Shown in pieces: positions 7,675 to 43,899 of a stretch of 64,000 bases of DNA. Source of the DNA: Bacillota bacterium (lineage in GTDB: Bacteria; Bacillota; Dethiobacteria; DTU022); the NCBI GenBank assembly GCA_046483445.1, contig JAWODD010000008.1, forward strand, positions 752-64,751, given 5' to 3'. The notes under the pieces are model-generated. The model was not told the origin of the DNA. It ran no database searches and worked only from the letters and a program-made list of their open reading frames with translations. Both the position numbers and the translations under genes were made by a program. The stretch's first letter is position 1. Each line of letters begins with the position of its first letter.

Positions 7675-7706
7675 CAATATCTGGGTGAAAGAAGGAGGGG
7701 AATAAT

Positions 7707-9257
7707 GTGGTTCTCAAAAGTTATATTGCCAAAAATACTTTTCGTGATTCAGTTTACCTGATGCGCCTTTCCTCTACAGTTAGAAATTTTGAGGGGGTTA
7801 TCGAAGCAGAAGTTATAATCGGCACTGACCATAATAAAAAGTTTTTGCAATCCAGCGGGCTCTGGAACGAAGAAATCGAAAAAGAAGCCGGTGCTAACGA
7901 CTTGATCATTGCAGTAAAAGCGGAGGATGAAGAAAAAGCGGAACAGGCAATTAAAAGCACGCATGAGGAATTAAACAAATCGGTGGAAAGAGAAAGCCTG
8001 CTCGGTGAATTTGTACCGCGCACTTTTGAAACAGCTTACGATAACTTCCCCGGGGCCAACCTGGCTTTGTTGTCTATCCCGGGACGTTATGTGCAGCGTG
8101 AAGCAGACCAGATCATCGAAGCCGGTTTGCATTTGATGATCTTCAGCGATAATGTGCCTCTAGACGCTGAAATAGCACTTAAGAAAAAAGCGCAAGAAAA
8201 AAATCTTTTCGTTATGGGTCCGGACTGTGGAACAGCAATCATCAACGGCACACCGCTTGCATTTGCCAATGAGCTAAAAAGAGGGAATATCGGCATTGTT
8301 GCCGCAGCTGGAACCGGTTTGCAGGAAGTGGCAAGCTTGATTAATAACCTGGGTGAAGGAGTTAGTCAAGGTATCGGAACCGGTGGCCGGGACATCAAGG
8401 CGGCGGTGGGCGGAATAACCATGATCCAGGGATTAAAAGCCCTGCTTAATGATAAAAATACGGATGTTATCGTCATTATCGCCAAGCCGCCCGACCAGGA
8501 AGTAACTGAAAAAGTGTTGGACATAGCAAGTAAGGGTAATAAGCCTGTTGTGATAAACTTTATCGGAGGTGATATGGATAAAGTCCGTTCGGCTGGTTGC
8601 AGCCCAGCATTAACCCTTAAAGAAGCAGCTAAAAAAGCGGTCGACCTGTTGCGTCAAAAACCTGTAGAAGGCGAAGATCATCTTGCTGAAGTAGATGAAA
8701 CCCAGATCAGTGCAGAAAAGGAAAAGTATAAAGAGGGCCAGTGCTACCTGCGAGCCCTTTATTCCGGGGGCACGCTTGCCTACGAAGCCCTGGTTTTACT
8801 GCAGAAAAGTGTCGATACAATTTATACCAACCTTAGTTTTGAGCAGGCTAAAAAAGTTGAGGATGTATATAAAAGTCAGAAGAATACCATTATTGACTTT
8901 GGTGAAGATGAATTTACCCAGGGTCGACTGCACCCGATGATTGACCCAACTATTCGAAACAATCGCATAATTGCCGAAGCACAAGATCCAGAAACTGCTG
9001 TAGTGATGCTGGATTTGGTGCTGGGTTATAACGCTCATCCGGACCCGGCCGGTTCAGCACTGGAAGCAATTAAAGAGGCAAAGGCGATTGCAGCAAAAGA
9101 CGGCCGCTGGATTACTTTTGTGACATCTGTTTGCGGTACCGATGATGATATTCAAAACCGTACTGAGCAGGTAAACAAGCTAGAGAACGAAGGAGTTTTT
9201 GTTTTCCCCAGCAATGCCGATGCAGCCAACTATGTAGCAAAGCTTTTACCCGTATGA
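7707..9257 (+). CDS. fdrA: FdrA-like acyl-CoA synthetase (succinyl-CoA synthetase alpha-like) protein
   Basis: Size, CoA-ligase-like glycine-rich segments (GIVAAAGTGLQE, GIGTGGRD) and position upstream of a DUF1116 gene, as in E. coli fdrA-ylbE. Confidence 0.7.
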   Translation: MVLKSYIAKNTFRDSVYLMRLSSTVRNFEGVIEAEVIIGTDHNKKFLQSSGLWNEEIEKEAGANDLIIAVKAEDEEKAEQAIKSTHEELNKSVERESLLGEFVPRTFETAYDNFPGANLALLSIPGRYVQREADQIIEAGLHLMIFSDNVPLDAEIALKKKAQEKNLFVMGPDCGTAIINGTPLAFANELKRGNIGIVAAAGTGLQEVASLINNLGEGVSQGIGTGGRDIKAAVGGITMIQGLKALLNDKNTDVIVIIAKPPDQEVTEKVLDIASKGNKPVVINFIGGDMDKVRSAGCSPALTLKEAAKKAVDLLRQKPVEGEDHLAEVDETQISAEKEKYKEGQCYLRALYSGGTLAYEALVLLQKSVDTIYTNLSFEQAKKVEDVYKSQKNTIIDFGEDEFTQGRLHPMIDPTIRNNRIIAEAQDPETAVVMLDLVLGYNAHPDPAGSALEAIKEAKAIAAKDGRWITFVTSVCGTDDDIQNRTEQVNKLENEGVFVFPSNADAANYVAKLLPV

Positions 9258-9327
9258 ACGGCCCCGGGCCTTTGAGCAGTTATGACCGTTTGATATTTAG
9301 ATAAACTGAGACAGGAGGGTCGAAGTC

Positions 9328-9489
9328 ATGGATACTCTCTTTGAAAGCAAGTTGAAAGTTATTAATATGGGGCTTGAAGATTTTGCTGAAACCCTGAAAG
9401 AAAGAGGAACACCGGTTATGCACGTGCGCTGGCAGCCGCCGGCCATGGGCGATAACGACTTGCTTAATTTGCTTGATAAGTTAAAATAA
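9328..9489 (+). CDS. 53-aa hypothetical protein between fdrA and the DUF1116 gene (below the ORF-track cutoff)
   Basis: ATG sits 8 nt after AGGAGGG. Translation: MDTLFESKLKVINMGLEDFAETLKERGTPVMHVRWQPPAMGDNDLLNLLDKLK*. It is tightly packed between flanking genes. Confidence 0.55.
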   Translation: MDTLFESKLKVINMGLEDFAETLKERGTPVMHVRWQPPAMGDNDLLNLLDKLK

Positions 9490-9510
9490 ATTCTGGGAGG
9501 TGCAATTCTA

Positions 9511-10812
9511 ATGAGTAAAGTGGATCAGGCGAATCAGGAAGCAGTAAAAAACATGATGATTTCAAGACCGGTTTGGATTGATATTGGCAAGGCCCGGGAG
9601 GTTATCCCCGGCATGAAAGACAACCTTTTTCTCCATGCCGGACCGCCCATTACCTGGGAGAGAATGAGCGGCCCGTTAAAAGGAGCAATTATTGGAGGAT
9701 TGATTTACGAAGGGAAAGCCAAAAGCATAGAAGAAGCAGAAAAAACAGCTGCTTCGGGCGAGATTGAATTCGCCCCATGCCATCATTACAATTCTGTGGG
9801 ACCGATGGCCGGGGTAATTACTCCTTCTCAGACGGTTTTTATCATTGAAGACAAGGAATGGGGTGGTTATACCTATTCCAACATGAACGAAGGTTACGGC
9901 AAAGTTCTGCGTTATGGTGCTTACGATGAAGAAGTAATAAACCGTTTACGCTGGCTTGATCAAGTTTATGCTCAAGTTCTTAAAGAAGCTGTTCATCTGG
10001 CCGGGGGAGTTGATATAAAAACAATTATTGCCCAGGCTCTGCATATGGGTGATGATGCTCATAATCGTAACCGGGCGACCACTTCCCTGTTAATCCGGGC
10101 TATTGCACCGTTTATTGTGGAAACACAGTGGGGTAAAAAGACGGAGTACGATGCACCGCGCCTGGATCTTTCCAACGTATCAGCATACTTTAAAGATAAA
10201 AGAGCCACCGCTGCTGCAGAAGTGCTTGCTTTTATGCACAGCAATGATCTCACCTCGCTGAATGCGATCATGGCTGCCTGCAAAAGCATGGCCCTGGCCG
10301 CCCATGGTGTGGAAAATTCAACTATCATAACCACTATGGCTCGTAACGGAACAGATTTTGGCATCAGGGTTAGCAGTACCGGCGACAAATGGTTTACAGC
10401 TCCGGCCAATGTACCGGATGGGCTTTATTTCTCCGGTTTTAACGCCTCGGACGCGAACCCGGACATAGGGGACAGCGTAATCACCGAAACGGTTGGTGTA
10501 GGGGGTTTTGCCATGGCTGGTGCACCGGCTATAGTTAACTTTATCGGAGGCAAACCGGCCGATGCTTTTGACGCAACCAATGAAATGTATGAGATCACCG
10601 TTGCCGAAAACAGTAACTTTAATATACCGGCCATGGACTTCAAAGGTACACCGACAGGGATTGATGCCCGCAAGGTTGTTGAAAAAAACATTGTCCCCCG
10701 CATTAATACCGGTATAGCCCATAAAGAACCGGGTATTGGTCAGGTCGGTGCCGGTATAGTAAAACCGCCGATGGAAATGTTTATTGATGCATTAAAAGAA
10801 CTGGCAAAGTAA
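9511..10812 (+). CDS. ylbE: DUF1116 family protein (YlbE/AllG-like)
   Basis: Recalled E. coli YlbE strings are matched: LHAGPPI.W..M.GP.KGA, FAPCHH.N.VGPMAG, NEGYGKVLRYGAY, GD..ITET.G.GG, INTGIAHKEPGIGQVGAG. Confidence 0.75.
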   Translation: MSKVDQANQEAVKNMMISRPVWIDIGKAREVIPGMKDNLFLHAGPPITWERMSGPLKGAIIGGLIYEGKAKSIEEAEKTAASGEIEFAPCHHYNSVGPMAGVITPSQTVFIIEDKEWGGYTYSNMNEGYGKVLRYGAYDEEVINRLRWLDQVYAQVLKEAVHLAGGVDIKTIIAQALHMGDDAHNRNRATTSLLIRAIAPFIVETQWGKKTEYDAPRLDLSNVSAYFKDKRATAAAEVLAFMHSNDLTSLNAIMAACKSMALAAHGVENSTIITTMARNGTDFGIRVSSTGDKWFTAPANVPDGLYFSGFNASDANPDIGDSVITETVGVGGFAMAGAPAIVNFIGGKPADAFDATNEMYEITVAENSNFNIPAMDFKGTPTGIDARKVVEKNIVPRINTGIAHKEPGIGQVGAGIVKPPMEMFIDALKELAK

Positions 10813-10871
10813 GATATACTTGGATTAGTTGAACGGCCAGTTTATTTTTAATATGGAGGTGAACCAGGGAT

Positions 10872-11702
10872 ATGCCGTCTTACGATTACTTGAAATGTGT
10901 TGATTTAAAGCAAGCATTTCAACTGCTGGAAAGTAAAGAGCAGGTTTACCCGTTTGCTGGCGGGACTGACCTTCTAAACAACATCCGTAATGGCAAAGTC
11001 AAAACCGATATGCTCTTAGACGTCAAAGAAATTGACGAGATAAAAGTGTTGAGAGAAGTTGAAGAAGGGATGATCATCGGAGCAGGGATTTCGTTAAACG
11101 AAGTAGCCAACTTTGCTCCGCTAAGAAATAATCTTCCCATCTTGGCAGAAGGAGCGCACAGTGTTGGCAGTTATCCGATCCGTAACCGGGCCACACTGGG
11201 CGGAAATATATGCAATGCTTCTCCGGCTGCAGATACTGCCCCACCGCTATACTGCCTGGGTGCATTAGTTAATATAGTTAGCTCCAATCAATCTAGGGCA
11301 ATCCCAATTGAAGAATTTTTTGTTGGGCCGGGTGAAACTGCTCTAAAGAAAGGGGAGCTTGTTCATTCAGTGCTTATTCCCAAACCATTCCCGGACGGAA
11401 AAGGAGTCTATTTGAAGGCTTCCCGAACCGGATCAGTGGATTTGGCCACAGTAGGTGTGGGCGTGCAAAGGTGGGGAAACCAGGTGAAAATTGCAGTTGG
11501 TGCGGTTGCCCCCACGCCGGTCAGAGCCCTTTCGGTAGAAAAAGCGATCAATGAAAATGGCGAGAAGGACTGGGCCAAAGCGGCCAGGTTAGTCCATGAT
11601 GACATCTCTCCCATAACCGATTTAAGAGGGTCTATCGATTACTGCTATCACTTAAGTGAAGTCTTGGTCCGTCGAGGCCTTGAACAGACGATGGGGGTGT
11701 GA
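10872..11702 (+). CDS. molybdenum hydroxylase FAD-binding (medium, CoxM/XdhB-like) subunit
   Basis: FAGGTDLL motif. ~276 aa. Directly precedes the 2Fe-2S and Mo subunits. Confidence 0.8.
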   Translation: MPSYDYLKCVDLKQAFQLLESKEQVYPFAGGTDLLNNIRNGKVKTDMLLDVKEIDEIKVLREVEEGMIIGAGISLNEVANFAPLRNNLPILAEGAHSVGSYPIRNRATLGGNICNASPAADTAPPLYCLGALVNIVSSNQSRAIPIEEFFVGPGETALKKGELVHSVLIPKPFPDGKGVYLKASRTGSVDLATVGVGVQRWGNQVKIAVGAVAPTPVRALSVEKAINENGEKDWAKAARLVHDDISPITDLRGSIDYCYHLSEVLVRRGLEQTMGV

Positions 11703-11704
11703 AA

Positions 11705-12175
11705 ATGTCTGAAAAACTGACCATAAATTTTACTGTAAACGGAGTTAAGGAAACTAAAGAAGCAGCCAGCGGGCAGACCCTGTTAAAATTTATCAGGGAA
11801 GAGCTTCACCTTACCGGAACCAAGGAAGGATGCGAAATCGGCGAATGCGGAGCCTGTGTAGTTCTTTTGGACGGTAAACCGGTTAATTCCTGTCTTGTCC
11901 TGGCAGTTGAGCTGGATCAAAAAGAGTTGATAACCATTGAAGGTTTATCCAAAAATGGAGAACTGGACCGTATCCAACAAGCTTTTATCGATCATGCTGC
12001 TTTCCAGTGCGGTTACTGCACGCCCGGCATGATCATGTCCGCCCGGGCCTTACTTGAACGCAATCCAAACCCGAGTGATGAAGATATAAATGAGGCTTTA
12101 AAAGGCAATCTCTGCCGCTGTGGTGCATACCAGGAAATTAGGGAAGCAGTTAAAGCTTTAGGTAATAAACAGTGA
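11705..12175 (+). CDS. molybdenum hydroxylase (2Fe-2S)-binding small subunit
   Basis: CEIGECGAC, CGYCTPG and CRCGAY cysteine motifs. ATG lies 8 nt after GGGGG. Its start overlaps the upstream stop. Confidence 0.85.
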   Translation: MSEKLTINFTVNGVKETKEAASGQTLLKFIREELHLTGTKEGCEIGECGACVVLLDGKPVNSCLVLAVELDQKELITIEGLSKNGELDRIQQAFIDHAAFQCGYCTPGMIMSARALLERNPNPSDEDINEALKGNLCRCGAYQEIREAVKALGNKQ

Positions 12176-12194
12176 GAAAGGAGGAATAAAAGGG

Positions 12195-14498
12195 ATGGCG
12201 GAACTAAAACATGTAGGAACCTCGTTACCGCGTAAAGATGCCGTGGAAAAAGTAACCGGCAGTGCAAAATTCATCGAAGATTTATATATCGGGCCGATGC
12301 TCCATGCCAAGATTAAAAAGAGCACTGTCGCTCACGGCAAGATAATAAATATCAATACTGAAAAAGCGCGGTCTCATCCCGGTGTCAAGGCTGTTCTAAC
12401 CGGGAAAGAGTACCCGAACAGGATTGGGCTTTACTTGATTGATAGAAATTTTTTAGCAGTCGACAAGGTTCGTTACTGGGGAGAGCCGGTTGCCGTAGTC
12501 GCTGCGGTTTCGGAGGAAGCAGCCAAAGAAGGGGCTGAGATGATCGAAGTTGAATATGAAGAGCTGCCCGGGGTTTTTGATCCGCGTGAAGGGATGAAGC
12601 CGGATGCGCCACTGATCCATGAAGATCTCGGCAACTATGAGATTGTTCCCATATTCTTCCCTAAACCCGGGACAAATATCGCCAACCATTTTAAAGTTCG
12701 CAAAGGGGATATTGAAAAAGGTTTTGAAGAGGCTGATTTTGTGGTAGAAAACGACTACTATGTACCCCAGATGCAGCATGTGCCGATAGAAACCCACAAA
12801 GCGGCCGCCCACTGGGGAGCCGACGGAAAGCTGACTGTTTGGAGCACCGCCCAGTCTCCGAATGTCGTTCGCCAGCTTCTGGCTAAATCTTTTGAAATGC
12901 CCATGCACAAAATCAGGGTTATTTCCAACTATATCGGCGGGGGATTTGGCTGCAAGGCAGGAGCTTCTATAGAAGGCCTGGTTGTTCCCCTGGCCAGGAT
13001 GTTTCCCGGTCATGTAGTGCGCATTGTTTTTTCCAGGGAAGAAGATATGCAGGGGAGCTTTACCCGCCAGGCTCTGTATTCGAAACTTAAAACGGGAGTG
13101 CGCAAAGATGGCCGCATAACCGCCCTGGAATATAATATGGTCTGGGATGGGGGCGCTTACACCGAGTACGGTGTTAATATTGTCCGGGCCGCCGGTTATA
13201 GTTCAAGTGGCGCTTACGACATTCCCAACATTAAAACCGATTCCTATTGTGTTTATACAAACAATTCTATTGGGGGGCCGCTGCGTGGTTTCGGGATGAG
13301 CGAAATGCAGTGGGGCATTGAACGGCAGCTTGACGAAATCGCCAAAAAGCTGAACATGGACCCGTTGGAAGTGCGCCTAATTAACGGCATGAAAGAAGGT
13401 TCAACTACGGCATCCGGGCAGGAAGTTCACCATGTTGCCTATGATAAATGCCTGAAAACCGTGGCTGATAAGATTGGATGGAACAAAAAAGAAGGTAAAT
13501 ATCGCGGCAAGGGTATTGCCGGCCTGGTTAAATGTCCAGCTCAGCCAAGCAACGCCGCTTCTTCAGCAATTATCCGCATTAACGAAGACGGTACAGCTCA
13601 TGTTATGGTCGGAGCTTCCGAAATGGGCCAGGGCATGCTTACTGCAATGACTCAGATCGCCGCCGAAGCGCTGAATATCACCACTGACAGAATTGAAATC
13701 AAAGTCCCCGATACTGATTTTACTCCTTATGACTGGCAAAGTGTGGGCAGCAGGGTAACCTATACCTCCGGCCTTGCCGTAAAACGTGCCGCTGAAGACG
13801 CTCTTGGACAGATCTACAGGATTGCTGCTGATTTGATGGAACTGCCTGAAGATGAACTTACTTTTGATGGTAATAAGATCTACTGGACAAAAGATAAGAA
13901 TAGAAAAGCAACTTTACGCGAGGTTGCCGACAGTTGCAAAAAGTGTACTGGTGAAGGTATAGCCGGGCCAATAATCGGCCGGGGGTCCTTTGTGCCAAAT
14001 AATATGACCAACCTGGATCCGGAAACCGGACAGGGTAACCCCGGTATGTTCTACTGTTTCGGAGCCACTGGTGTCGAAGTGGAAGTAGATCCGGAAACAG
14101 GAAAAATCAAGATCCTGCAGTTGGCCAGCTCAATTGATGCCGGAAAAGCGGTTAACCCGCAGTTGTGTCATGTTCAGCTGCACGGCGGGACAATCATGGG
14201 CCTTTCCACCGCCCTTTTTGAAGAACTCCATTTCGACAAAGGGGTTATTCTGAACCGGAACTTTACCGACTACAAAATCTCTACTATAGATAACACTCCG
14301 CATATCGACAGTTTCGTGATTGAAACGCCCGAGGAAAAGGGGCCATACGGTGTTAGAGGTATTGGTGAACAACCGATGATCGGAGTGGCTCCGGCTGTAG
14401 CCAATGCTGTTTTTGACGCTATAGGCATAAAGTTTAATAGTTTCCCCCTTACTCCGCAACGGGTCTGGCAGGCTATAAAAGAGAATGAGGAAAAATAA
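12195..14498 (+). CDS. molybdopterin-binding large subunit of a xanthine dehydrogenase/aldehyde oxidase family enzyme
   Basis: 767 aa with a/b-hammerhead plus MoCo-binding regions (GGGFG, GASEMGQG, IDAGKAVNP, GIGEQP). Confidence 0.85.
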   Translation: MAELKHVGTSLPRKDAVEKVTGSAKFIEDLYIGPMLHAKIKKSTVAHGKIININTEKARSHPGVKAVLTGKEYPNRIGLYLIDRNFLAVDKVRYWGEPVAVVAAVSEEAAKEGAEMIEVEYEELPGVFDPREGMKPDAPLIHEDLGNYEIVPIFFPKPGTNIANHFKVRKGDIEKGFEEADFVVENDYYVPQMQHVPIETHKAAAHWGADGKLTVWSTAQSPNVVRQLLAKSFEMPMHKIRVISNYIGGGFGCKAGASIEGLVVPLARMFPGHVVRIVFSREEDMQGSFTRQALYSKLKTGVRKDGRITALEYNMVWDGGAYTEYGVNIVRAAGYSSSGAYDIPNIKTDSYCVYTNNSIGGPLRGFGMSEMQWGIERQLDEIAKKLNMDPLEVRLINGMKEGSTTASGQEVHHVAYDKCLKTVADKIGWNKKEGKYRGKGIAGLVKCPAQPSNAASSAIIRINEDGTAHVMVGASEMGQGMLTAMTQIAAEALNITTDRIEIKVPDTDFTPYDWQSVGSRVTYTSGLAVKRAAEDALGQIYRIAADLMELPEDELTFDGNKIYWTKDKNRKATLREVADSCKKCTGEGIAGPIIGRGSFVPNNMTNLDPETGQGNPGMFYCFGATGVEVEVDPETGKIKILQLASSIDAGKAVNPQLCHVQLHGGTIMGLSTALFEELHFDKGVILNRNFTDYKISTIDNTPHIDSFVIETPEEKGPYGVRGIGEQPMIGVAPAVANAVFDAIGIKFNSFPLTPQRVWQAIKENEEK

Positions 14499-28439: not shown

Positions 28440-29324
28440 ATGGAAGTTCTAATGAACAATATTACTGATACGGCCTTAATCTTTGAAGGCGGTGGAATGA
28501 GGGCCAGTTACACTTCAGGTTTTGTCAATATAATGCTGGAAAACGACATTTATTTTGATTATGTTGCCGGAATCTCTGCCGGTGCCAGCAACAGTGTGAA
28601 CTATTTGACCAGGGATACAGAGCGAGTCAAGAAATCCTTTGTGGACCTGGTGCTTGAACCTGAGTTTGGCGGCTGGCGATCATTTTTAAAAGGCGAAGGT
28701 TATTTCCGCGCCCGCTATATTTATGAGGAAACTCCTTATCCAGGCGCAGCCCTGCCCTTAGATTTTGAGAAATTCAAGAACAACCCGGCAAAGCTGAGAA
28801 TTGGCGCTTTCGAATTGGATAGCGCCAGGATGCGCTATTTTACCAGGGATGATATCGAAAGTATCCAGGACTTAGCAAGAATTGTCCGCTGTTCTTCAAC
28901 GCTTCCATTTTTTATGCCGCCTGCAACATTTCAGCAAAAAACTTACCTCGATGGCGGTCTTGGCGGTGGCCTGGCATTAGATATTGCCAAAAAAAATGGT
29001 TTTAATAAGTTTTTTGTTGTCTTAACCCGCCCGAGGGGGTTCAGGAAGAAGCCTTTCAAAATACCGCTGCTGGTCAGGGCTTATTATCGCAAAAATCCCC
29101 ATGTGGCCGATGCTTTGCTAACCTTTTACCAGAAATATAATCAAACTCTAAATGAACTGGAAGAGCTTGAACGCGCGGGTAAAGCCTTTCTGGCCTTTCC
29201 TGATACAATGCCTGTCAATAGTATGGAAAGCAACTTCGCTAAACTGCAGGAAAGCTACAATTTGGGTTATCAGCAGGGACAGCGTGACCTGTTCAGGTGG
29301 CAAAAGTTCCTTGGAATCAAATGA
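28440..29324 (+). CDS. patatin-like phospholipase
   Basis: GGGMRASY (oxyanion hole), GISAGA (GxSxG) and YLDGGLGG (catalytic Asp). Confidence 0.85.
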   Translation: MEVLMNNITDTALIFEGGGMRASYTSGFVNIMLENDIYFDYVAGISAGASNSVNYLTRDTERVKKSFVDLVLEPEFGGWRSFLKGEGYFRARYIYEETPYPGAALPLDFEKFKNNPAKLRIGAFELDSARMRYFTRDDIESIQDLARIVRCSSTLPFFMPPATFQQKTYLDGGLGGGLALDIAKKNGFNKFFVVLTRPRGFRKKPFKIPLLVRAYYRKNPHVADALLTFYQKYNQTLNELEELERAGKAFLAFPDTMPVNSMESNFAKLQESYNLGYQQGQRDLFRWQKFLGIK

Positions 29325-30644: not shown

Positions 30645-30935
30645 CTACGATTCTTCCAGCTCAGCCATTCGCTTTTCCATTTCAGCCAGTTCTTGTCTCA
30701 ATTGTTCTGCCTGTTCTTTTAAATATGCTTTTTCATCTTCAGGATTGGAAGTAGCTGAGGAATAATATGGATCAGGAACTCCGCTCCATTGACGATAGGC
30801 TCTCCACCCGGGTCTACGACCCCAAAAACCTCTTCTGGGACCCCTCATCCCTGGGGCAAAGCCACTGCATGGACCAAATCCCCTACCGGTCATCGGTCCT
30901 CTGCCCATTGGACCGGTTCCGTCAAAACCAGGCAT
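30645..30935 (-). CDS. DUF5320 family protein
   Basis: MPGFDGTGPMGRGPMTGRGFGPC... Gly/Arg-rich N-terminus plus a C-terminal coiled coil is the DUF5320 pattern. Confidence 0.7.
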   Translation of the reverse strand: MPGFDGTGPMGRGPMTGRGFGPCSGFAPGMRGPRRGFWGRRPGWRAYRQWSGVPDPYYSSATSNPEDEKAYLKEQAEQLRQELAEMEKRMAELEES

Positions 30936-31057: not shown

Positions 31058-31882
31058 TTAATTTGTTTCTCGTAAAATCTCGTAAAATTTGTCATTTATA
31101 TTGTCAAATAAGTTAGTTTGAAATTCTTCTATTGCCCCACTATCCCCAAGTTTAGAAAGTCTGGGATCAAGGGGTAAACAGCCAATTAATTCAATACCTG
31201 TAGCCCTGGCCACTTCCTCAGCGCTGCTTTTGCCAAACATTTCGATTTCTTTCCCACAGTGAGGGCAAGTCATCCCACTCATATTTTCAACCAGGCCAAG
31301 GATTTGAGTATCCATCATTCTAGCCATTTTAATCGCTTTTTTTACTACCATAACTGCCAAATCCTGGGGAGAAGATACAATAAGCAATCCATCAAGTGGC
31401 AAGGACTGAAGGACTGTTAAGGGAGCATCCCCAGTTCCTGGAGGCAGGTCGACAATCAGGTAATCTAACTCACCCCAGAGAACGTCGGTCCAGAATTGTT
31501 TAACCGCTCCCCCGATTAACGGTCCACGCCAGACAACCGGATCATCTTCCTGGGGAAGCAGTAAATTCAAAGATATAATCTTAATTCCTAATTTGCTTGT
31601 TTCAGGAATTATTTTACCCTCAACCACTTTAGCTTGATCATTTAGTCCAAAGAGCTTGGGTATACTAGAACCGGTAATATCGGCATCAAGTAACCCTACA
31701 CGATACCCCTGTTTAATCAAAGCAACTGCCAACAAAGCGGAAATTGAAGATTTGCCCACGCCCCCTTTTCCACTCATAACAGCAATGGTTCGGGAAATAT
31801 GGCTACCTTCCGGCTGTGATAGCTTTTCAATACCGCTTGCATTTTCCGAATTATTTTTTTCTGCTTGCTCATTCTCTTCCAC
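31058..31882 (-). CDS. Mrp/NBP35/ApbC-family P-loop ATPase (Fe-S cluster carrier)
   Basis: MSGKGGVGKSS deviant Walker A and CPHCG motif. Start re-called to GTG 31882, 8 nt after GGAGG. The track ATG at 31897 has no RBS. Confidence 0.8.
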   Translation of the reverse strand: MEENEQAEKNNSENASGIEKLSQPEGSHISRTIAVMSGKGGVGKSSISALLAVALIKQGYRVGLLDADITGSSIPKLFGLNDQAKVVEGKIIPETSKLGIKIISLNLLLPQEDDPVVWRGPLIGGAVKQFWTDVLWGELDYLIVDLPPGTGDAPLTVLQSLPLDGLLIVSSPQDLAVMVVKKAIKMARMMDTQILGLVENMSGMTCPHCGKEIEMFGKSSAEEVARATGIELIGCLPLDPRLSKLGDSGAIEEFQTNLFDNINDKFYEILRETN

Positions 31883-32154
31883 GATAAAAACCTCCATTTC
31901 CAGTGTTTTAGAACATTATGGGTATGTATCTATTACTATTATAGATCTATTATGGGTATAAATCAATATAATTTTTATTGGCAAATAAATATTCTTTGTC
32001 GAACTGATTGAGGATAGCGGGCCATTAATTTCTGTCCTTTTCATGTAAAATAATATTCCTGCTATCTATACCCTTAAGCGTTATATGACAAATACCTGAT
32101 TTGTTTTTTGACTTGGCCATTTTTGGCATTACAATTCTACCTGGTTAAAATAGC

Positions 32155-32190
32155 ACAAAAAAAGAGGGGGCAAGAGAAACACCCCTTCTA
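32155..32190 (-). terminator. Rho-independent terminator of the heliorhodopsin gene
   Basis: On the minus strand, a GGGG...CCCC stem is followed by TTTTTTT. Confidence 0.65.
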
Positions 32191-32223: not shown

Positions 32224-33015
32224 TTATGGTTGCATGGCACCGAACAGGACCAGCCATGCTAATGCTGACTTTGCCACCAGGCTTAAAATAATATAGACAC
32301 GCTCACCGTATAAGTAATCCTGCCATTTGCCTACCCTTAAATACTGCAGAACCATGTTGACAGGAAAGGTGTTAAAGGCAACAAAGTATGTTCCCACAAT
32401 AGCCCAGACAAACCAGGGCACCATATCAAAGTTGCCCGTGCCAAACATGTAAGTCAAAATAACAATCCATGGACCGATGCCCGCCATTGAACCCCAGATA
32501 AAAGGTCCCCAGATGATATTTTTCTTCTCTTTGCCGGCATTTAACTGTTCCATTACCAGGCCAAACAGGTTCATTGAGGCATTGATTAGAAAAATAAGAA
32601 TTAGAGTGCCGATATCGTAAATACCAAACAGGGTAGCAATTAAAACAATCATTATCGATGAGCTTAGCGAATACTCAAACCAGCGAAATTGGTTGATCCC
32701 ATTTTCCAGATCTCTTTTGTAAACTGCGTTGGTTTTCTCAGGTAAAGAAATTAGGCCGTGCGCAATGGCCGATATCAATAAAAATGATGCCACTAAAATC
32801 CCAAAAGGCAGTTCAAATAAGTCCTGACTGGTAACAACTAAGGATCTTGTTTCAAGATCGAAGGTCTGATAAAACTGGATTATGGTCGGGGTAAACTCAG
32901 AAATTGTCTGAATCACAGTGGTTGCCAAAAACAGCATGACAATCCCCTGAACCAGGTGCAACCCTCCCATGATCATGTTAAAACGCTTCAAACCGTCAAA
33001 AGTAATTTGTTTCAT
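32224..33015 (-). CDS. heliorhodopsin
   Basis: Seven TM segments. FRWFEYSLSSSIMIVLIA, INASMNLFG and GERVYIILSLVAKSALAW match the family-defining strings of the 48C12 prototype, including the TM7 Lys (codon 32269-32271). ATG 33015 sits behind AGAGGTGA. Confidence 0.85.
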   Translation of the reverse strand: MKQITFDGLKRFNMIMGGLHLVQGIVMLFLATTVIQTISEFTPTIIQFYQTFDLETRSLVVTSQDLFELPFGILVASFLLISAIAHGLISLPEKTNAVYKRDLENGINQFRWFEYSLSSSIMIVLIATLFGIYDIGTLILIFLINASMNLFGLVMEQLNAGKEKKNIIWGPFIWGSMAGIGPWIVILTYMFGTGNFDMVPWFVWAIVGTYFVAFNTFPVNMVLQYLRVGKWQDYLYGERVYIILSLVAKSALAWLVLFGAMQP

Positions 33016-33364
33016 CCCTATCACCTCTTCAAAATAATGAGCACCTGCAAAATAAGAGCAATATTCTTTTAATGATTAATCTGCAAAACCAGTTTATTTT
33101 GGGTTTACAAAGCAGATTATAACTGGCAAAATATAAGTTTTTTACCAGGTACGCTTAAGCTTTATTGTACTAGAAAAAAACAAATAACTTCTTGCAGTTA
33201 AGATTCAGTATTTGTTTTTTACCTGGCTGGGAAGTGGCGAGCGGTTAATTTCAGTCAGGCTGGGTTTTGATTATATATTGCCTTGACCTGGATAGCTAAA
33301 AAACCGTCCGTCACTGCCGTTGAACCACTTTTTATAGATCATGGCTTATGCAGAAATTCTAGGT

Positions 33365-34024
33365 TTAAATCCATTCCATTTTACTTAGGTAATTGTTTTC
33401 ACCAATAGCAACAATAATGTCTTCTTTTTCAATAATATCTTCCGCTACTGGAGAAATGATTGTTTTATGACCGCTATTACGGCGTAAAGCAATAATGCTG
33501 ATTCCGTAGCGATTTCGTAAATTAAGCTCTTTTAAAGATTTGCCAACCATTTCTTCCGGAGCATTTACTTCAACTACGCTATAATCATCGGATAACTCAA
33601 TCAAATCGATAATTGTTGGTGCAATTAAACTTCGGGCAAGTTTTTGACCCATATCCCGTTCAGGAAATACCACTTGATTAACTCCCACTTTATCTAGAAC
33701 TTTACCGTGAAGTTCTGTTCTGGCTTTAGCTACAATCCGTTTTGCTCCAAGCTCAATGAGTAAGATTGCTGCCATAATACTGGCCTGCATGTCATCGCCG
33801 ATTGCTAAGACTATTGTATCAAAGTCCTTAATATCCAACCCCTTGAGGCATGGTTCGGAAGATGCATCGGCTTTCACAGCATTGGTTACTTCTTCGCTGA
33901 ACTGCTGGACTTTATCTTCATTATTATCCATGACCATGACATCATGGCCCAGTTTATATAGGTTTCTAGCTACGCTTGATCCAAACCTACCTGCTCCAAT
34001 AACTAAGAATTGTTTTGTTTTCAT
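33365..34024 (-). CDS. ktrA: K+ uptake regulatory subunit KtrA (RCK/TrkA-N plus TrkA-C)
   Basis: FLVIGAGRFGSSVA Rossmann motif. 219 aa. Confidence 0.85.
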   Translation of the reverse strand: MKTKQFLVIGAGRFGSSVARNLYKLGHDVMVMDNNEDKVQQFSEEVTNAVKADASSEPCLKGLDIKDFDTIVLAIGDDMQASIMAAILLIELGAKRIVAKARTELHGKVLDKVGVNQVVFPERDMGQKLARSLIAPTIIDLIELSDDYSVVEVNAPEEMVGKSLKELNLRNRYGISIIALRRNSGHKTIISPVAEDIIEKEDIIVAIGENNYLSKMEWI

Positions 34025-34062: not shown

Positions 34063-35442
34063 CTAACCGATCATCAAGTGTCCTTCCGGATATTGAATGG
34101 CAATATCTTTAGGTTTTTCCTGAGCCAAAGCTACCAGTAATGTCACAGGTCCAATCCTACCGCAAAACATGGTTATAATCAAGGCAATTTTGCTGGGATT
34201 ACTTAAGCTGGGAGTAATACCCGTGGAAAGCCCGACTGTACCAAAGGCAGATATAGCTTCAAAAAACATATCGTTAAAATTCTGTCCTTCAAATAAGGTT
34301 AATATGAAGGTAGCTATAAATACCAGAACCATGGAAGCGCTGATAATCGAAATAGCTTTCATGATATGTTGGGATGGGAAACGGCGCTGAAAAATCACCG
34401 GTTCATGACGCCCCCGAATCATGCTGACCAGGGTAAAAGCTACTATTCCAAAGGTGGTCGTTTTCACGCCACCGCCGGTAGAAGTTGGTGAAGCGCCGAT
34501 AAACATCAAACCCATTAGAATCAGTAAGGAAGAATAACACAACAGCCCTGTATCCAAAACACTAAACCCTGCCGTCCTGGCGGTAGCTGAGGTAAAGAAA
34601 GCAGCAAACAATTTGGCTCCGCCGGAAAGACCACCCATGGTTTCCGGATTATTATATTCAAGCAAGAGTATGATTACTGTACCGCTGCTTAACAGCAGGG
34701 CAGAAATAATTAAAACCAGCTTAGCGTGCAGGGTAAAGCGAGTCCGGTAGCGGATAAACCTGCTTAATTCAAGGATCACAGTAAAACCGAAACCACCGAT
34801 AATAAATAGGGTTACAATGGTTCCATTCACTAAGTAATCGGTTGGAAACCGGGTCAGGCTGTCGTAATTGCCAAAAAGGTCAAAACCGGCATTGCCAAAA
34901 GCAGAGACAGCATGGAACAGGGCAATAAAAAAACCTTCGGAAAGGCCGTATTCCGGAACGAATCTGATACTGAGCAGGGCTGTTCCAATCAGGATGAAAA
35001 ATAAGGCGATGCGAACCACTACCTTAACCAAAGGTATGATGCCCGCTATAGACTTCTGGTTGAGGGCTTCTTTAATCATAATCCTTTCTTGTAATGATAT
35101 ACGCCTCCCTAAAAATATAAAAATCAGGGTGGTCATGGTCATAAAACCTAGAGCACCGATAAAGATTAAAAACATAATGATGCCCTGGCCAAAAGGAGTA
35201 TAAAAAGTCCCCGTGTCAACAACCACGAGCCCAGTTACACAAACTGCCGAGGTAGCGGTAAACAGGGCATCAATATAAGAAAGTGCTGCTCCTTCGTAAG
35301 ATTGGGGGAGCATAAGAAGCAGTGAACCGACCAGGATAATACCCATAAAACCTAATGCTAAGACACGGGCCGGGTTTAGAGGTTTTCGTTTTGTTCGCAA
35401 AAAAAACATCACCAGTCGGAAATTATTTAATAGCCTTATCAA
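34063..35442 (-). CDS. ktrB: K+ transporter membrane subunit KtrB/TrkH family
   Basis: Multi-TM with four selectivity-filter-like glycine motifs (VTGL, NAGF, RTAGF, TVGLSTG). Start uncertain: 35442 or an internal Met. Confidence 0.85.
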   Translation of the reverse strand: MIRLLNNFRLVMFFLRTKRKPLNPARVLALGFMGIILVGSLLLMLPQSYEGAALSYIDALFTATSAVCVTGLVVVDTGTFYTPFGQGIIMFLIFIGALGFMTMTTLIFIFLGRRISLQERIMIKEALNQKSIAGIIPLVKVVVRIALFFILIGTALLSIRFVPEYGLSEGFFIALFHAVSAFGNAGFDLFGNYDSLTRFPTDYLVNGTIVTLFIIGGFGFTVILELSRFIRYRTRFTLHAKLVLIISALLLSSGTVIILLLEYNNPETMGGLSGGAKLFAAFFTSATARTAGFSVLDTGLLCYSSLLILMGLMFIGASPTSTGGGVKTTTFGIVAFTLVSMIRGRHEPVIFQRRFPSQHIMKAISIISASMVLVFIATFILTLFEGQNFNDMFFEAISAFGTVGLSTGITPSLSNPSKIALIITMFCGRIGPVTLLVALAQEKPKDIAIQYPEGHLMIG

Positions 35443-35651
35443 AAGGTGAATCTATTTTTTAAGGCAATGTCACTCATTACCTCAACATATAATACAACGC
35501 GTTCATGATTTTCATCAATTTCTTTATTCAGCTTTTTAAGAAGCACTTGAGCTGTTGCTTTGTTTCTTTTTCTGATTATTTCTGCAATATCTGCGACCAA
35601 CCGTTTAATTACCGCTGCTAAAATCTTAAGTATTTCTTGCTGCAGCTTCAT
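35439..35651 (-). CDS. hypothetical 70-aa helical protein overlapping the ktrB start by 4 nt
   Basis: ORF only, with no convincing RBS. Confidence 0.3.
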   Translation of the reverse strand: MKLQQEILKILAAVIKRLVADIAEIIRKRNKATAQVLLKKLNKEIDENHERVVLYVEVMSDIALKNRFTF

Positions 35652-36267: not shown

Positions 36268-36324
36268 AAAACAAAAATGAGGGCATTCCCTGTCGTTATG
36301 GAAATACCCTCATTTATCTTTTTT
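36268..36324. terminator. bidirectional Rho-independent terminator (serves csp on the minus strand)
   Basis: ATGAGGG...CCCTCAT stem extended by ATTCC/GGAAT, flanked by A-rich (left) and T-rich (right) tracts. Confidence 0.6.
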
Positions 36325-36343
36325 GCTATACTCTTAGTTTAAA

Positions 36344-36541
36344 TTATATAGCGACAACGTTTGCTGCTTGCGACCCGCGGTTGCCTTCGACTACTTCGAA
36401 TTTAACTGCTTGTTCTTCGTCCAAAGTTTTATAACCGTCACTTTGAATTGCAGAAAAATGAACAAAAACATCGTTTCCTTCTTCTGTTTCGATAAAGCCG
36501 TAACCTTTATCAGGGCTGAACCATTTTACTTTACCTTGCAT
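36344..36541 (-). CDS. cold-shock protein (CspA family)
   Basis: [18 protein letters not shown]...DVFVHFSAI carries the RNP1/RNP2 motifs. Confidence 0.95.
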
Positions 36542-36744
36542 TGTGTAACACTCCTTTGCTTAGAAATTAATCAAAAAGAGGAGTTTCCGTTTAACCTCTA
36601 ATCCTTTTTCCAGGCAAAGGCATCAAGATCTTTCTCCGTTTTCTCGTCTTTTTAACGCTAACTAAATGATAACATGTTTGTATAAGAAAAGCAATACTTC
36701 TAAAAAAAACCAAAAATCAAGCTTTAAAGTTTATAGCTTGCATT

Positions 36745-40022: not shown

Positions 40023-42761
40023 ATGACTAAAAAGAAAAAGGCAGATCCGCAAACAGAGATTTGTTCGAGCAATAAGCCCCACAACCCCCCTGCAGTAGAG
40101 GTGCGAAAGAGAGGTTTTCCCATTATCGGCATTGGTGCTTCTGCCGGTGGTTTAGAAGCTTTGGAACTTTTCCTGAAGAATATTCCAGAAGATAGCGGAA
40201 TGGCCTTTGTTATTGTCCAACATCTGGATCCCACACGAAAAGATCTGATGGTGGAGCTGCTTCAGCGGGTTACCTCCTTACAGGTTATACAGGTTACGGA
40301 ACCCACCGTGGTTCAACCCAATTGTGTGTATATAATCCCGCCAAACAAAGATATGTCGATCTTCCATGGTACATTACATCTTTTTGAACCAGCAGAGCCT
40401 CGCGGGCTACGTTTGCCTGTTGATTTTTTCTTCCGTTCCCTGGCGGATGACCAACAGGAACAAAGTATTGGTGTCATCCTCACGGGCATGGGCACTGACG
40501 GAACCCTGGGTCTTGGCGCTATCAAGGAAAGGGGAGGGGTTGGTTTTGTCCAGGAACCGGCTTCGGCAAAATTCGACAGCATGCCCCAAAGTGCAGTTGA
40601 GGCTGGCCTGGCCGATGTTATCGCTCCAGTGGAGGAGCTGCCGGTAAAAATCTTTTCATATCTCTATTATAAACCTTCCTTCGACGACTCCGAACCGGCT
40701 CTTACAGATAAGGATCAGAGTTCTCTTGAAAAAATTATGATCCTGCTGCGGTCTAAGACAGGTCATGACTTTTCCCTTTACAAAAAAACCACTGTTTACC
40801 GCCGCCTGGAGCGCCGTATGGGTATCCATCAGATAGACAGTATAGCCACATACATCCGTTTTCTTCAGGAAAATCCCCAGGAGGTTGAGCTGTTATATAA
40901 AGAGCTTTTAATCGGGGTTACTAATTTTTTCCGTGACCCGGAAGTGTGGGAACAGCTGAAAAAGGCCATCGCAGAGCAACTGACCGGCTGCGTAAACCAG
41001 ACACTGCGAGCCTGGGTGCCGGGTTGCGCAACAGGCGAGGAGGCATATACTTTAGCCATCGTCTTTAAGGAAATGGTGGAAGAGTTAAAACCCGCCCAGG
41101 ATTTAACTCTTCAGATATTTGCTACCGATTTAAACCGGGAAGCGATTAACAAGGCTCGTGAAGCCGTTTATCCGGCTAACATCGCTGCGGATGTTTCGCC
41201 GGAGCGGTTAAGACGGTTTTTTAACCAGGTGGAAAATGGCTTCCAGGTTGCTAAACCCGTACGGGAGATGGTGGTTTTTGCCCAACAAAATATGATTATG
41301 GATCCGCCTTTTACCAGGCTGGATATCCTGAGCTGCCGCAACCTGCTAATTTACATGACTCCGGAGCTACAGGGGAAAATTATACCCCTTTTACACTATA
41401 GTTTAAAGCCGGACGGTTTTTTATTATTAGGAAGTGCTGAATCTATCGGTAGTTTCACAAACCTTTTTGAACCTTTCAAGGGTGAATTCCACCTCTACCG
41501 GCGGCTTGAGCCTGCAGTGCAGTCAGAACCGGTTGAATTTCCAACTTCCCATGCTCCAAAACTTCCTCCGCCGTCTTTTAAGCGGGAGGTAAATTTACAA
41601 TCACTGGCGGATCAACTGATATTAAAGCGTTATGCACCCGCGTCTATACTGGTCAACAACAAAGGTGATATCCTCTATACTAGCGGACGGACAGGCAAGT
41701 ATCTCGAACCGGCGGCTGGTAAGGCCAACTGGAATATCTTTGCCATGATCCGTGAAGGTCTTAGCTATACCCTGAATAACGCTTTTCAGAATGCAGTTCG
41801 GGAAAATGAAGTAGTTACCGTCAAAAACGCAGTTGTGAAGATCAATGGAGAGAAACAAACAGTAAATATCATTGTCCAGCCGCTTGAAGAGCCGGAACCG
41901 TTGCGCAGGATGGTGCTGATCGTCTTTACAGAAGTAACTATGCCTCATGAAGACAAGGCGAGGGATAAAACGGGGCACAAAGAAGATGTCAACAATGATC
42001 GGGTGTCCGAACTAGAAGCAGAACTCCGGCAAGCCTACCGGGAGATTAAACATGTTCGCGAAGAGAATCAAGCATCACAGGAAAAACTCAGCGCTGCCAA
42101 TGAAGAGCTGCAGTCAACCAATGAAGAGCTGCAGTCAACCAATGAAGAACTGACCACTTCCAAGGAAGAGCTGCAATCGTTAAATGAGGAGTTGCAGACG
42201 ATCAACCACGAACTGCAAACTAAAGTAGACGAGCTGTACCAGATAAATAACGACATGAAGAATTTGCTCGAAAGCACCGAAATCGCTACTTTATTTCTGG
42301 ATAATTTGCTTCATGTGCGGCGATTTACAGCTAAGACAACTGAGATCATCAAGCTTATACCAGGTGATGTGGGACGATTAATTACTGATATTGCCTCCGA
42401 CTTAGATTACCCGGAACTGGCAGAAGATGCCCGGGAAGTGCTGCGCAAACTGACATTCAAGGAAAAATCGGTTTCCGCTACCGGTGGGCGCTGGTTTACG
42501 GTGAAAATTATGCCCTACCGCACACTTGAAGACAAAATTGACGGTTTGGTGATTACATTTATTGACATAACTGCTTCCAAAATGCTGGAAGATGACTTGA
42601 AGCAAGCCCAGGCAGAATTGGAAAAACGCATAGTGAAAAAAGATCAGGATTTGAACAAAGTTGAAAAGAGATTGCAGTCTGAGAAACACCGGGATAAAAA
42701 AAGAAAGGACCCCGACATAACTCAAAGCCCTGATGAAAAGGGGAGGGATCGGCATGAGTAG
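40023..42761 (+). CDS. CheB methylesterase - CheR methyltransferase - coiled coil - PAS fusion protein
   Basis: IVGIGASAGGLEAL...VIVQHLDP (CheB-type). RAWVPGCATGEEAYTLA (CheR SAM-binding). NEELQSTNEEL heptads, then a PAS-like C-terminus. Confidence 0.85.
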   Translation: MTKKKKADPQTEICSSNKPHNPPAVEVRKRGFPIIGIGASAGGLEALELFLKNIPEDSGMAFVIVQHLDPTRKDLMVELLQRVTSLQVIQVTEPTVVQPNCVYIIPPNKDMSIFHGTLHLFEPAEPRGLRLPVDFFFRSLADDQQEQSIGVILTGMGTDGTLGLGAIKERGGVGFVQEPASAKFDSMPQSAVEAGLADVIAPVEELPVKIFSYLYYKPSFDDSEPALTDKDQSSLEKIMILLRSKTGHDFSLYKKTTVYRRLERRMGIHQIDSIATYIRFLQENPQEVELLYKELLIGVTNFFRDPEVWEQLKKAIAEQLTGCVNQTLRAWVPGCATGEEAYTLAIVFKEMVEELKPAQDLTLQIFATDLNREAINKAREAVYPANIAADVSPERLRRFFNQVENGFQVAKPVREMVVFAQQNMIMDPPFTRLDILSCRNLLIYMTPELQGKIIPLLHYSLKPDGFLLLGSAESIGSFTNLFEPFKGEFHLYRRLEPAVQSEPVEFPTSHAPKLPPPSFKREVNLQSLADQLILKRYAPASILVNNKGDILYTSGRTGKYLEPAAGKANWNIFAMIREGLSYTLNNAFQNAVRENEVVTVKNAVVKINGEKQTVNIIVQPLEEPEPLRRMVLIVFTEVTMPHEDKARDKTGHKEDVNNDRVSELEAELRQAYREIKHVREENQASQEKLSAANEELQSTNEELQSTNEELTTSKEELQSLNEELQTINHELQTKVDELYQINNDMKNLLESTEIATLFLDNLLHVRRFTAKTTEIIKLIPGDVGRLITDIASDLDYPELAEDAREVLRKLTFKEKSVSATGGRWFTVKIMPYRTLEDKIDGLVITFIDITASKMLEDDLKQAQAELEKRIVKKDQDLNKVEKRLQSEKHRDKKRKDPDITQSPDEKGRDRHE
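42099..42224 (+). repeat. six tandem 21-bp units (two identical, four degenerate) encoding NEELQST-type heptads
   Basis: aatgaagagctgcagtcaacc occurs at 42099-42119 and 42120-42140, followed by diverged in-phase copies. Confidence 0.9.
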
Positions 42762-43899
42762 ATACATGTCTGAGGAAGAGTTGCGCCGCCAGGCAGAGAA
42801 GCAGTTACGAAGAGGCAAGCAAAAACAAACAGCTCCTGTAACACCGGAAGAATTACAGCGGCTTGTACAGGAACTTGAGGTACACCAGATAGAGTTGCAG
42901 ATGCAAAATGAGGAGTTAGAAAAGGCACGCTTGGAGCTGGAAAGTTACCTGCAACAATATACCGATCTATATGACTTTGCCCCTGTCGGTTATCTTACCC
43001 TGGATCAAAACGGCGTAATCCTGGGTGTTAATCTGACCGGAGCGCGCATGTTGGGGATTGATCGCGGCCAGCTTTTGAATCTTCATTTTGAAAAATTTAT
43101 TCTAGTTGAATACCGGTCCTCTTTTTTATCCTTTCTGGAAAAAGCATTTTTTAGCCGAGCCCATGAAACCACTGAGATTGCCCTGCAAAAGGAGGGTAAC
43201 GAAGGACTATTTGTGCACCTTGAAGCGCTTGCTTCAACAAACGAGGGGGAATGCCGCGTTGCCCTGGTGGATATTTCGGCCCAAAAAAAAGCAGAAATAA
43301 AACTGCGAGAAAGTGAACATCAATATCGGACTTTATTTGAAACCATGTCACAAGGGATTGTGTATCAGGATTCGGACAGTAAAATTTTAGCGGCTAATCC
43401 CGCCGCCGAAAAGATTCTTGGCATGCCGATCAAGCAAATGCTGGGGGAAAAACCAAAAGACCTTCAGTGGGAAGCTATTCATGAGAATGGAACTGATTTT
43501 CCGGAAGAAATCCACCCTTCCATGGTAGCCCTGCGAACAGGAGAAGTGGTTGAAAATGTGATCATGGGATTTTACTCACCCCAGAACGGTAAATACAGCT
43601 GGCTCAGTGTAACCGCGGTGCCGCAGTTCAGGCCCGGAGAAGATAGACCATTTCAGGTATTTGTAACTTTCGAGGATATCACCCCCCTGAAACTTATGGA
43701 GAACTTTAACGAGCTTACTCCCCGAGAAAAAGAAGTATTCAAACTGCTTGTTAAGAGTTACGACCGCAAAACAATAGCAGAAAAATTAAAAGTTAGTCCT
43801 AAAACTGTAGACAAGCACAAAGAAAACTTGATGGAAAAGTTAAAACTATATAATCAACACGATCTTGTTGAGTTTGCAAAGCGGCTTAACCTGCTTTAA
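42754..43899 (+). CDS. coiled coil - PAS - PAS - LuxR-type HTH transcriptional regulator
   Basis: C-terminal LTPREKEVFKLLVKSYDRKTIAEKLKVSPKTVDKHKENLMEKL. ATG 42754 lies 6 nt after GGGGAGGG and overlaps the upstream stop by 8 nt. Confidence 0.8.
   Translation: MSRYMSEEELRRQAEKQLRRGKQKQTAPVTPEELQRLVQELEVHQIELQMQNEELEKARLELESYLQQYTDLYDFAPVGYLTLDQNGVILGVNLTGARMLGIDRGQLLNLHFEKFILVEYRSSFLSFLEKAFFSRAHETTEIALQKEGNEGLFVHLEALASTNEGECRVALVDISAQKKAEIKLRESEHQYRTLFETMSQGIVYQDSDSKILAANPAAEKILGMPIKQMLGEKPKDLQWEAIHENGTDFPEEIHPSMVALRTGEVVENVIMGFYSPQNGKYSWLSVTAVPQFRPGEDRPFQVFVTFEDITPLKLMENFNELTPREKEVFKLLVKSYDRKTIAEKLKVSPKTVDKHKENLMEKLKLYNQHDLVEFAKRLNLL

Follow-up and report, generated by a model that had tools for sequence, protein, structure and literature searches.

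What does the heliorhodopsin (HeR) gene in the middle of a 64,000-nucleotide stretch of Bacillota bacterium contig JAWODD010000008.1 (the 64-kb stretch hereafter called the window) encode, and do the genes that flank it, ktrB and ktrA on one side and mrp and a DUF5320 gene on the other, tell us anything about what its product does? We consider it highly probable that the answer has several connected parts: the gene encodes a canonical HeR, it forms an independent and probably monocistronic unit in a setting specific to this genome, and its product is probably a non-transporting sensor with a partner that is probably encoded elsewhere. The evidence for each part, and the alternatives that compete with it, are set out below, with the coordinates of all main features collected in Table 1.

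Searches with family models placed the predicted protein among the heliorhodopsins far above chance. The Pfam Heliorhodopsin model (PF18761) was matched over its full length (model positions 1-242 of 242; E=3.2e-95, 318.5 bits against a cutoff of 26.7), as was the NCBIfam equivalog NF038020, 'heliorhodopsin HeR' (positions 1-244 of 244; 294.4 bits, cutoff 100), and the standard NCBI annotation pipeline would therefore give the gene that name. Two proteins of solved structure were also matched at full length, TaHeR (6is6; E=2e-53, 46% identity) and 48C12 (6su3; E=1.5e-43, 45% identity), with TaHeR the higher scoring (185 versus 152 bits) at similar identities of ~45-46%. The window HeR has 6837 homologues at E<1e-20, and the nearest named ones, 75-78% identical, are annotated 'heliorhodopsin HeR' in Trichococcus, Jeotgalibaca, Sedimentibacter, Halolactibacillus and Pelagirhabdus. 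Residues 9-261 of 263 make up the HeR domain, with 8 residues N-terminal to it; a Pfam scan of the protein returned no further domain and no MORN match, and no second or MORN-fused HeR was found within the window. The reading frame runs on the minus strand from an ATG at 33015 to a stop codon at 32226-32224 (263 codons), and this ATG is taken as the start because nearly all close homologues are 263 amino acids long. The GAGGTG of the preceding Shine-Dalgarno sequence is kept in an upstream alignment of five relatives. A GTG at 33024, which was considered as an alternative start, was rejected on the same length comparison and for its position within the Shine-Dalgarno GAGGTGA. The G+C content of the gene (41.5%) falls inside the range of its neighbours (38-50%) and so is uninformative on compositional anomaly. 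Judged by these matches, the predicted product is a canonical heliorhodopsin, in agreement with an earlier note, made from the letters of the window, that had proposed this identity; the open reading frame (ORF) and all the peptide strings quoted there are present.

Residues of the photoactive site were identified by taking the structurally important positions of 48C12 from Kovalev et al. (PMC7049168) and mapping them via a HMMER alignment, which showed 34 of the 39 to be identical in the window HeR. The Schiff-base lysine, K249, corresponds to K241 of 48C12 and also aligns with the Schiff-base lysine of TaHeR (helix G); the counter-ion glutamate, E114, corresponds to E107 (helix C), and the second counter-ion position is Ser, not Asp (S245 = S237). 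Further matches to 48C12 include two more serines (S82 = S76, S118 = S111), the two conserved histidines (H20 = H23, H86 = H80) and the Schiff-base cavity, which is identical at N13 (N16), Y99 (Y92), N108 (N101), R111 (R104), Y115 (Y108), E238 (E230) and E156 (E149). These key residues are invariant among 20 aligned clade members (74-95% identity), which argues for strong purifying selection. The earlier note had put the Lys, Glu and His in the conserved columns and the Lys codon at 32269-32271, and both placements are correct on alignment to 48C12. Its further statement that the diagnostic strings are near-identical to those of 48C12 stands for helices C and G and does not extend to the whole protein, in which overall identity is only 45%; the strings, all close to 48C12, are FRWFEYSLSSSIMIVLIA versus FRWVEYSLSSSVMIVLIA, INASMNLFG versus VNASMILFG, and GERVYIILSLVAKSALAW versus GERAYIVLSLVAKSALAW. 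By correspondence with 48C12, K249 would form the Schiff base with all-trans retinal, E114 would serve as the counter-ion, and the cavity would be lined by H20 and H86.

The hydropathy profile has seven hydrophobic segments, as had been claimed, with helices C and D merged into one long stretch, and alignments to the solved seven-helix HeR structures show few gaps. Apart from K249, 13 of the 14 Lys and Arg residues sit in the N-terminus and in the BC, DE and FG loops, a distribution that fits the inverted, N-in topology predicted for heliorhodopsins. We infer that the window HeR has seven helices and a cytoplasmic N-terminus.

The window HeR differs from the family prototype, 48C12 (6su3, 6su4), whose helix C (TM3) and helix G (TM7) strings it nearly shares, in carrying N149 for I142, M221 for Q213, T209 for S201 and L255 for Q247, as well as in its AB loop. 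The Asn and Met at the I142 and Q213 positions are shared with TaHeR (Thermoplasmatales archaeon; 6is6, 7u55), the best solved-structure match, and form the pattern that Kovalev et al. described for bacterial subfamily 3 (PMC7049168); TaHeR, however, is archaeal, has an AB loop 7 residues shorter and leaves small alignment gaps at the DE and EF loops. A viral HeR reportedly moves protons (cited in PMC11109279 and PMC12873467), and the window HeR could in principle also transport ions, for example as a light-driven proton transporter resembling viral V2HeR3. Its core, however, is subfamily-1/3-like, as in non-transporting bacterial and archaeal HeRs; the extracellular helix halves hold no extra charges, and the only Asp or Glu residues in or near the helices (D134, E156, E114 and E238) occupy conserved cytoplasmic-side positions. 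Published assays of 48C12 and TaHeR reportedly detected no transport. We therefore regard an ion-transporting HeR as highly improbable. By analogy with the characterised proteins, the window HeR would be a light sensor with a slow photocycle, most likely with no ion transport.

As to retinal supply, none of the 46 window ORFs scanned against Pfam matched SQS_PSY (phytoene synthase), a lycopene cyclase, Blh or a carotenoid oxygenase, which matches the earlier observation that no retinal or carotenoid biosynthesis gene is present. One reading of this result is that the gene no longer functions and persists as a relic, its anaerobic sediment host being unable to obtain retinal, and the fact that its relatives come from anoxic soda-lake sediments points the same way. 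Yet the ORF is intact and has a good ribosome-binding site (RBS), and the clade-wide invariance of every key residue described above points to strong purifying selection. Moreover, HeR genomes commonly lack blh: Chazan et al. found it to be rare next to HeR and in HeR-only genomes and invoked an unknown pathway or external retinal (bioRxiv 10.1101/2021.02.16.431466), and another bacterium has been shown to have an alternative source of retinal (bioRxiv 10.1101/2021.02.16.431466; PMC7734400). A relic is accordingly a most improbable explanation. The retinal of a functional protein would be taken from the environment or supplied by an unidentified pathway. Since ~61% of helR genes stand alone in their operon (PMC11109279), a stand-alone gene with no retinal genes nearby is the published norm for HeRs and is not distinctive.

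The extent of the unit to which the gene belongs can be read from its closest relatives. Three contigs with a 95%-identical HeR (L081-L083) share ~90% nucleotide identity with the window over positions 33180-32215 only, a block that comprises the HeR coding sequence, a leader of ~165 bp and 9 bp past the stop codon. Beyond this block the relatives are flanked differently, by SelR or a Polbeta nucleotidyltransferase upstream (in one relative sharing the leader, the upstream gene is on the opposite strand) and by a gene for a 111-amino-acid hypothetical protein downstream. Because the leader is kept although the upstream genes differ, the block is expected to carry its own expression signals, and a gene that forms a self-contained unit with its leader supports a monocistronic reading. 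The leader contains a -10-like TACAAT at 33169-33164, the gene is followed by a terminator-like hairpin (32185-32167) and a T-run, and a promoter-like site with 10/12 consensus matches precedes mrp (31966-31938); the terminator and promoter scans are only suggestive, because the numbers of sites that they called in the region equal the shuffled expectation. No other regulatory element emerged: the HeR leader had no relevant Rfam match and an unremarkable predicted fold (z = -0.73), Rfam searches (at gathering thresholds and by E-value) and fold z-scores gave no riboswitch or structured leader upstream of ktrB either, and k-mers over 83 upstream regions yielded A/T-rich words and the RBS only, with no clade-wide motif or operator. 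On the ktrA side, the 349-bp gap includes an A/U-rich hairpin and T-run at 33220-33174, left uncalled by the terminator scan because it has too few G-C pairs, that may be a weak ktrBA terminator separating ktrA from the HeR promoter. The HeR gene is probably monocistronic and has a leader/promoter block, an RBS and a terminator to itself. The earlier note had reached a similar view from a terminator after the gene and an upstream gap of ~340 bp, and its description is supported by the hairpin, by the measured gap and by the gene-plus-leader unit common to the 95%-identical relatives.

The same note had offered the neighbours (KtrAB, and Mrp with DUF5320) as useful context for function. They are present as named, but comparison of related loci removes their value as context. 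We searched by tblastn up to 10 kb on each side of HeR in 80 genome loci whose HeRs are 70-88% identical to that of the window, and KtrA, KtrB, Mrp, DUF5320, FloA and NfeD had a homologue in 0/80 of them, even at E<=1e-3. De novo clustering of all ORFs within 6 kb of HeR in 81 loci gave families that each occurred in 15 loci at most; the most frequent was a generic ABC ATPase, and the remainder were lineage-specific housekeeping genes. The relatives at 88% (L001) and 83% (L084) identity have entirely different neighbours from those in the window. The reverse comparison, starting from ktrA, gave the same result: HeR occurred in 0/80 metagenome ktrA loci, including those with 84-92%-identical KtrA that have sequence downstream of ktrA. 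In seven metagenome contigs with KtrA at this level of identity, homology to the window spans 35679-33367 and breaks exactly at the ktrA stop codon (block boundaries were read from ktrBA loci L085-L092). Homology thus ends at 33180 on the HeR side and at 33367 on the ktrBA side. On this evidence, ktrBA is an independent synteny block and not part of the HeR unit, mrp-DUF5320 appears to be under its own promoter and unlinked to HeR elsewhere, and the HeR-ktrBA adjacency is a junction of independent blocks, specific to this genome. The HeR unit is set between unrelated ktrBA and mrp-DUF5320 blocks. Because the adjacency is absent from related loci in both directions, the ktrAB and Mrp/DUF5320 neighbours are uninformative on HeR function.

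These data also address the idea that light-activated HeR binds KtrA or KtrB and modulates K+ uptake, for example in osmoadaptation of a haloalkaliphile, from an operon-like unit. HeR lies on the same strand as ktrA and begins 349 bp after it with only the weak A/U-rich hairpin between them, and characterised HeRs regulate adjacently encoded proteins (PMC9529153, PMC9769723, PMC11109279). Beyond the lack of KtrA and KtrB at the 80 HeR loci, the differing neighbours of the relatives at 95%, 88% and 83% identity and the loss of homology at the ktrA stop codon, this proposal is opposed by the gap and the separate leader, given that HeR operons have been defined by junctions of <10 bp (PMC8612252). 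Trk/Ktr is absent from the ten recurrent HeR partner groups of Cho et al. (PMC11109279), TrkA and 'potassium' are unmentioned in the texts of two published neighbourhood surveys, and our literature searches found no link between HeR and Trk, Ktr or potassium. To be functional, the coupling would need a very recent juxtaposition, and we judge it very unlikely. A variant in which that recent juxtaposition is itself adaptive, with partial read-through expression allowing light-dependent modulation of KtrAB K+ uptake in turgor control or osmoadaptation, seems still harder to credit. If true, modulation of KtrAB would place an ion-uptake system alongside the HeR-regulated partners already known.

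Instead, a non-transporting sensor of this family would be expected, by analogy, to signal through direct contact with a partner protein, probably one encoded elsewhere. Contacts of this kind have been described between TfHeR and a photolyase (PMC9769723), AbHeR and glutamine synthetase (PMC9529153), and OcHeR and an ABC transporter (PMC11109279). Cho et al. listed ten recurrent partners: the synthetases of glutamine and of NAD+, photolyase, MerR, TerC, ABC transporter, short-chain dehydrogenase/reductase, alpha/beta hydrolase, DUF2177 and DUF2238 (PMC11109279). Glutaredoxin, glyoxalase and histidine kinases were reported as HeR neighbours by Bulzu et al. (PMC8612252), and DegV, DUF2177 and DUF1295 by Chazan et al. 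(bioRxiv 10.1101/2021.02.16.431466). None of the published partner or neighbour families adjoins the window HeR, which has ktrA on one side and, beyond its terminator, mrp on the other. Further away, an ABC-2 transporter is encoded 4.8 kb from HeR, and glutamate synthase, which is not to be confused with glutamine synthetase, is encoded 7-20 kb from it, as are an NmrA-like protein and PAS-domain proteins; with the ABC transporter excepted, the other families of Cho et al. (PMC11109279) and the DegV, DUF2177 and DUF1295 families went undetected in the window.

Several points weigh against our interpretation of HeR as a separately expressed, partner-regulating sensor. Photolyase, glutamine synthetase, DUF2177, DUF2238, DegV, MerR and TerC were not found in the window, and with no known partner family there the partner-regulation mechanism is drawn purely by analogy. 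There is no convincing -35 upstream of HeR, where a sigma-70 consensus scan called no site, and the sole barrier between ktrA and HeR is the weak A/U-rich hairpin, so that read-through co-transcription with ktrBA is possible. HeR may then be a passenger gene, co-transcribed by read-through from ktrBA without functional coupling, which would agree with the lack of a strong G+C-rich terminator after ktrA and with a proposed HeR promoter that has no clear -35. The hairpin and its T-run nevertheless lie in the path of such a transcript, and the ~165-bp leader has been kept with HeR behind upstream genes as different as SelR and Polbeta; we regard the passenger explanation as unlikely.

Table 1. 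Main features of the heliorhodopsin locus and its neighbours (window coordinates).
Feature	Position	Strand	Basis or remarks
Heliorhodopsin (HeR) coding sequence	32224..33015	(-)	263 amino acids + stop; PF18761, NF038020, PDB matches, residue mapping
Shine-Dalgarno GAGGTGA	33021..33027	(-)	5-nt spacer to ATG at 33015; read from sequence
Leader/promoter block travelling with HeR	33016..33180	(-)	~90% nucleotide identity to L081-L083
HeR key codons, first set	H20 32956-32958; S82 32770-32772; H86 32758-32760; R111 32683-32685	(-)	Residue mapping
HeR key codons, second set	E114 32674-32676; S245 32281-32283; K249 32269-32271	(-)	Residue mapping
Terminator-like hairpin, GGGGTG-loop-TGCCCC then CTCTTTTTTT	32157..32185	(-)	Terminator scan; 39 nt after HeR stop
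A/U-rich hairpin + T-run after ktrA	33174..33220	(-)	RNA fold of 33166-33364, z = -1.5
ktrB	34063-35442	(-)	TrkH family TIGR00933, 355.7 bits (cutoff 331)
ktrA	33365-34024	(-)	TrkA_N + TrkA_C
Mrp/ApbC-type ParA-family Fe-S cluster carrier P-loop ATPase	31058-31897	(-)	PF10609, E=1.7e-91
DUF5320 protein	30645-30935	(-)	PF17253

Among the closest known systems, TfHeR of Trichococcus flocculiformis (PMC9769723) belongs to the same Bacillota HeR clade, is ~76% identical over its full length and, like the window HeR, has a 263-residue core length and all the Schiff-base and cavity residues. TfHeR is encoded in an operon with a class-2 cyclobutane pyrimidine dimer (CPD) photolyase and DUF2238, and it binds that photolyase and raises its activity (PMC9769723), whereas the window gene stands alone between ktrBA and mrp, and Pfam scans found neither of the two families in the window. 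The MORN-HeR fusions reported from metagenome-assembled genomes (MAGs) of soda-lake Dethiobacteria and Syntrophomonadaceae (PMC8612252) share host lineage and habitat with the window HeR and differ in carrying N-terminal MORN repeats, which it does not have.

Several markers point to that host lineage. The closest genome match to the window HeR (88% identity, L001) is in a MAG labelled 'Syntrophomonadaceae' that was recovered from sediment of Cock Soda Lake, the window MurA is closest to those of uncultured Bacillota and Dethiobacteria (the ML8_F2 MAG among them), and metagenomes of soda-lake sediments supply the nearest relatives of KtrA. FloA, NfeD and a Germane-domain (sporulation/germination) protein encoded in the window fit a Firmicute and, together with the MurA relatives, support the Firmicutes-type context suggested earlier. 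By these affinities, the host is assigned to an uncultured haloalkaliphilic Dethiobacteria or 'Syntrophomonadaceae'-type Bacillota lineage of soda-lake sediments. HeRs in Firmicutes, soda-lake Dethiobacteria included, have already been described (PMC8612252, PMC9769723). The window HeR is thus an ordinary new member of its family, which is well characterised and was already known from this lineage. It offers little beyond annotation: its lineage, its standing alone and the absence of retinal genes from its vicinity are all as in published surveys. It adds one more data point for HeRs of anaerobic soda-lake Firmicutes and a clean case of a HeR gene that, together with its leader, forms a self-contained unit. 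The useful result is a negative one, namely that the ktrAB/Mrp neighbourhood should not serve as functional evidence on the open question of the role of HeRs.

HeRs 70-88% identical to that of the window (L001-L080) occur in MAGs assigned to Bacillota, Chloroflexota (Anaerolineae, Dehalococcoidia), Mollicutes/Acholeplasmataceae, Saccharibacteria and Sumerlaeota, and the same set extends to nominally diderm bins (Fusobacteria, Thermotogaceae and Desulfovibrionaceae). This spread points to a highly constrained gene that is often transferred horizontally, to mis-binning, or to the two combined.

Among genes found near HeR at several loci is one for a patatin-like phospholipase (PF01734 + DUF6363; window 28440-29324, plus strand). 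Such a gene lies 0.3-4.2 kb from HeR in 8 of 81 clade loci from about four lineages (the others being L014, L039, L021, L022, L036, L029 and L034), and the copies from Fusibacter share 60-62% identity with the phospholipase of the window. The proximity is compatible with the published idea of a HeR role in membrane-lipid remodelling (DegV/DUF2177/DUF1295) and may be background synteny, because a DEAD-box helicase cluster is equally frequent (8 loci). Sensory proteins near HeRs have been noted in published surveys; in the window, a 912-amino-acid CheB-CheR-PAS fusion overlaps the start of a PAS-PAS-LuxR (GerE) regulator (40023-43899, plus strand), 7-10 kb from HeR, and nothing ties this pair to HeR specifically. 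In L001, a 550-amino-acid 4Fe-4S and FAD amine-oxidase-like fusion (L001 2619-4271, plus strand) comes before the 88%-identical HeR on the same strand, and then a 137-amino-acid protein without a family match; the window has no equivalent.

Two of the flanking genes call for brief comment. The Mrp-type ATPase had MrpORP and ApbC as its best NCBIfam matches, each below cutoff; a reading of this neighbour as a Na+/H+ (cation/proton) antiporter was rejected, since its PF10609 match identifies a ParA-family Fe-S carrier. Overlapping the start of ktrB is a 70-amino-acid ORF (35439-35651, minus strand) for which neither Pfam nor NCBIfam gave a match. It lies inside the nucleotide block (to 35679) common to the closest ktrBA loci, and so may be either a genuine small gene or a ktrBA leader.

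Elsewhere in the window, a full-length match to the Rfam cspA thermoregulator (36276-36640, minus strand; 65.8 bits, E=1.8e-15) falls below the gathering score of 78, and the ORF beneath it (36344-36541, minus strand) encodes a 65-amino-acid cold-shock protein that matched CspE/CspA-type NCBIfam models, all below cutoff. A 332-amino-acid Tocopherol_cycl protein (PF14249, E=8e-30) is encoded at 56807-57805 (plus strand), in the context of an anaerobic Firmicute. Finally, positions 6733-14498 hold a purine/oxamate catabolism cluster (a carbamate kinase-like protein, a CoA ligase, the AllG oxamate carbamoyltransferase subunit and three xanthine-dehydrogenase-type subunits) beside a PucR regulator (4810-6507), which fits an anaerobic purine-fermenting lifestyle.

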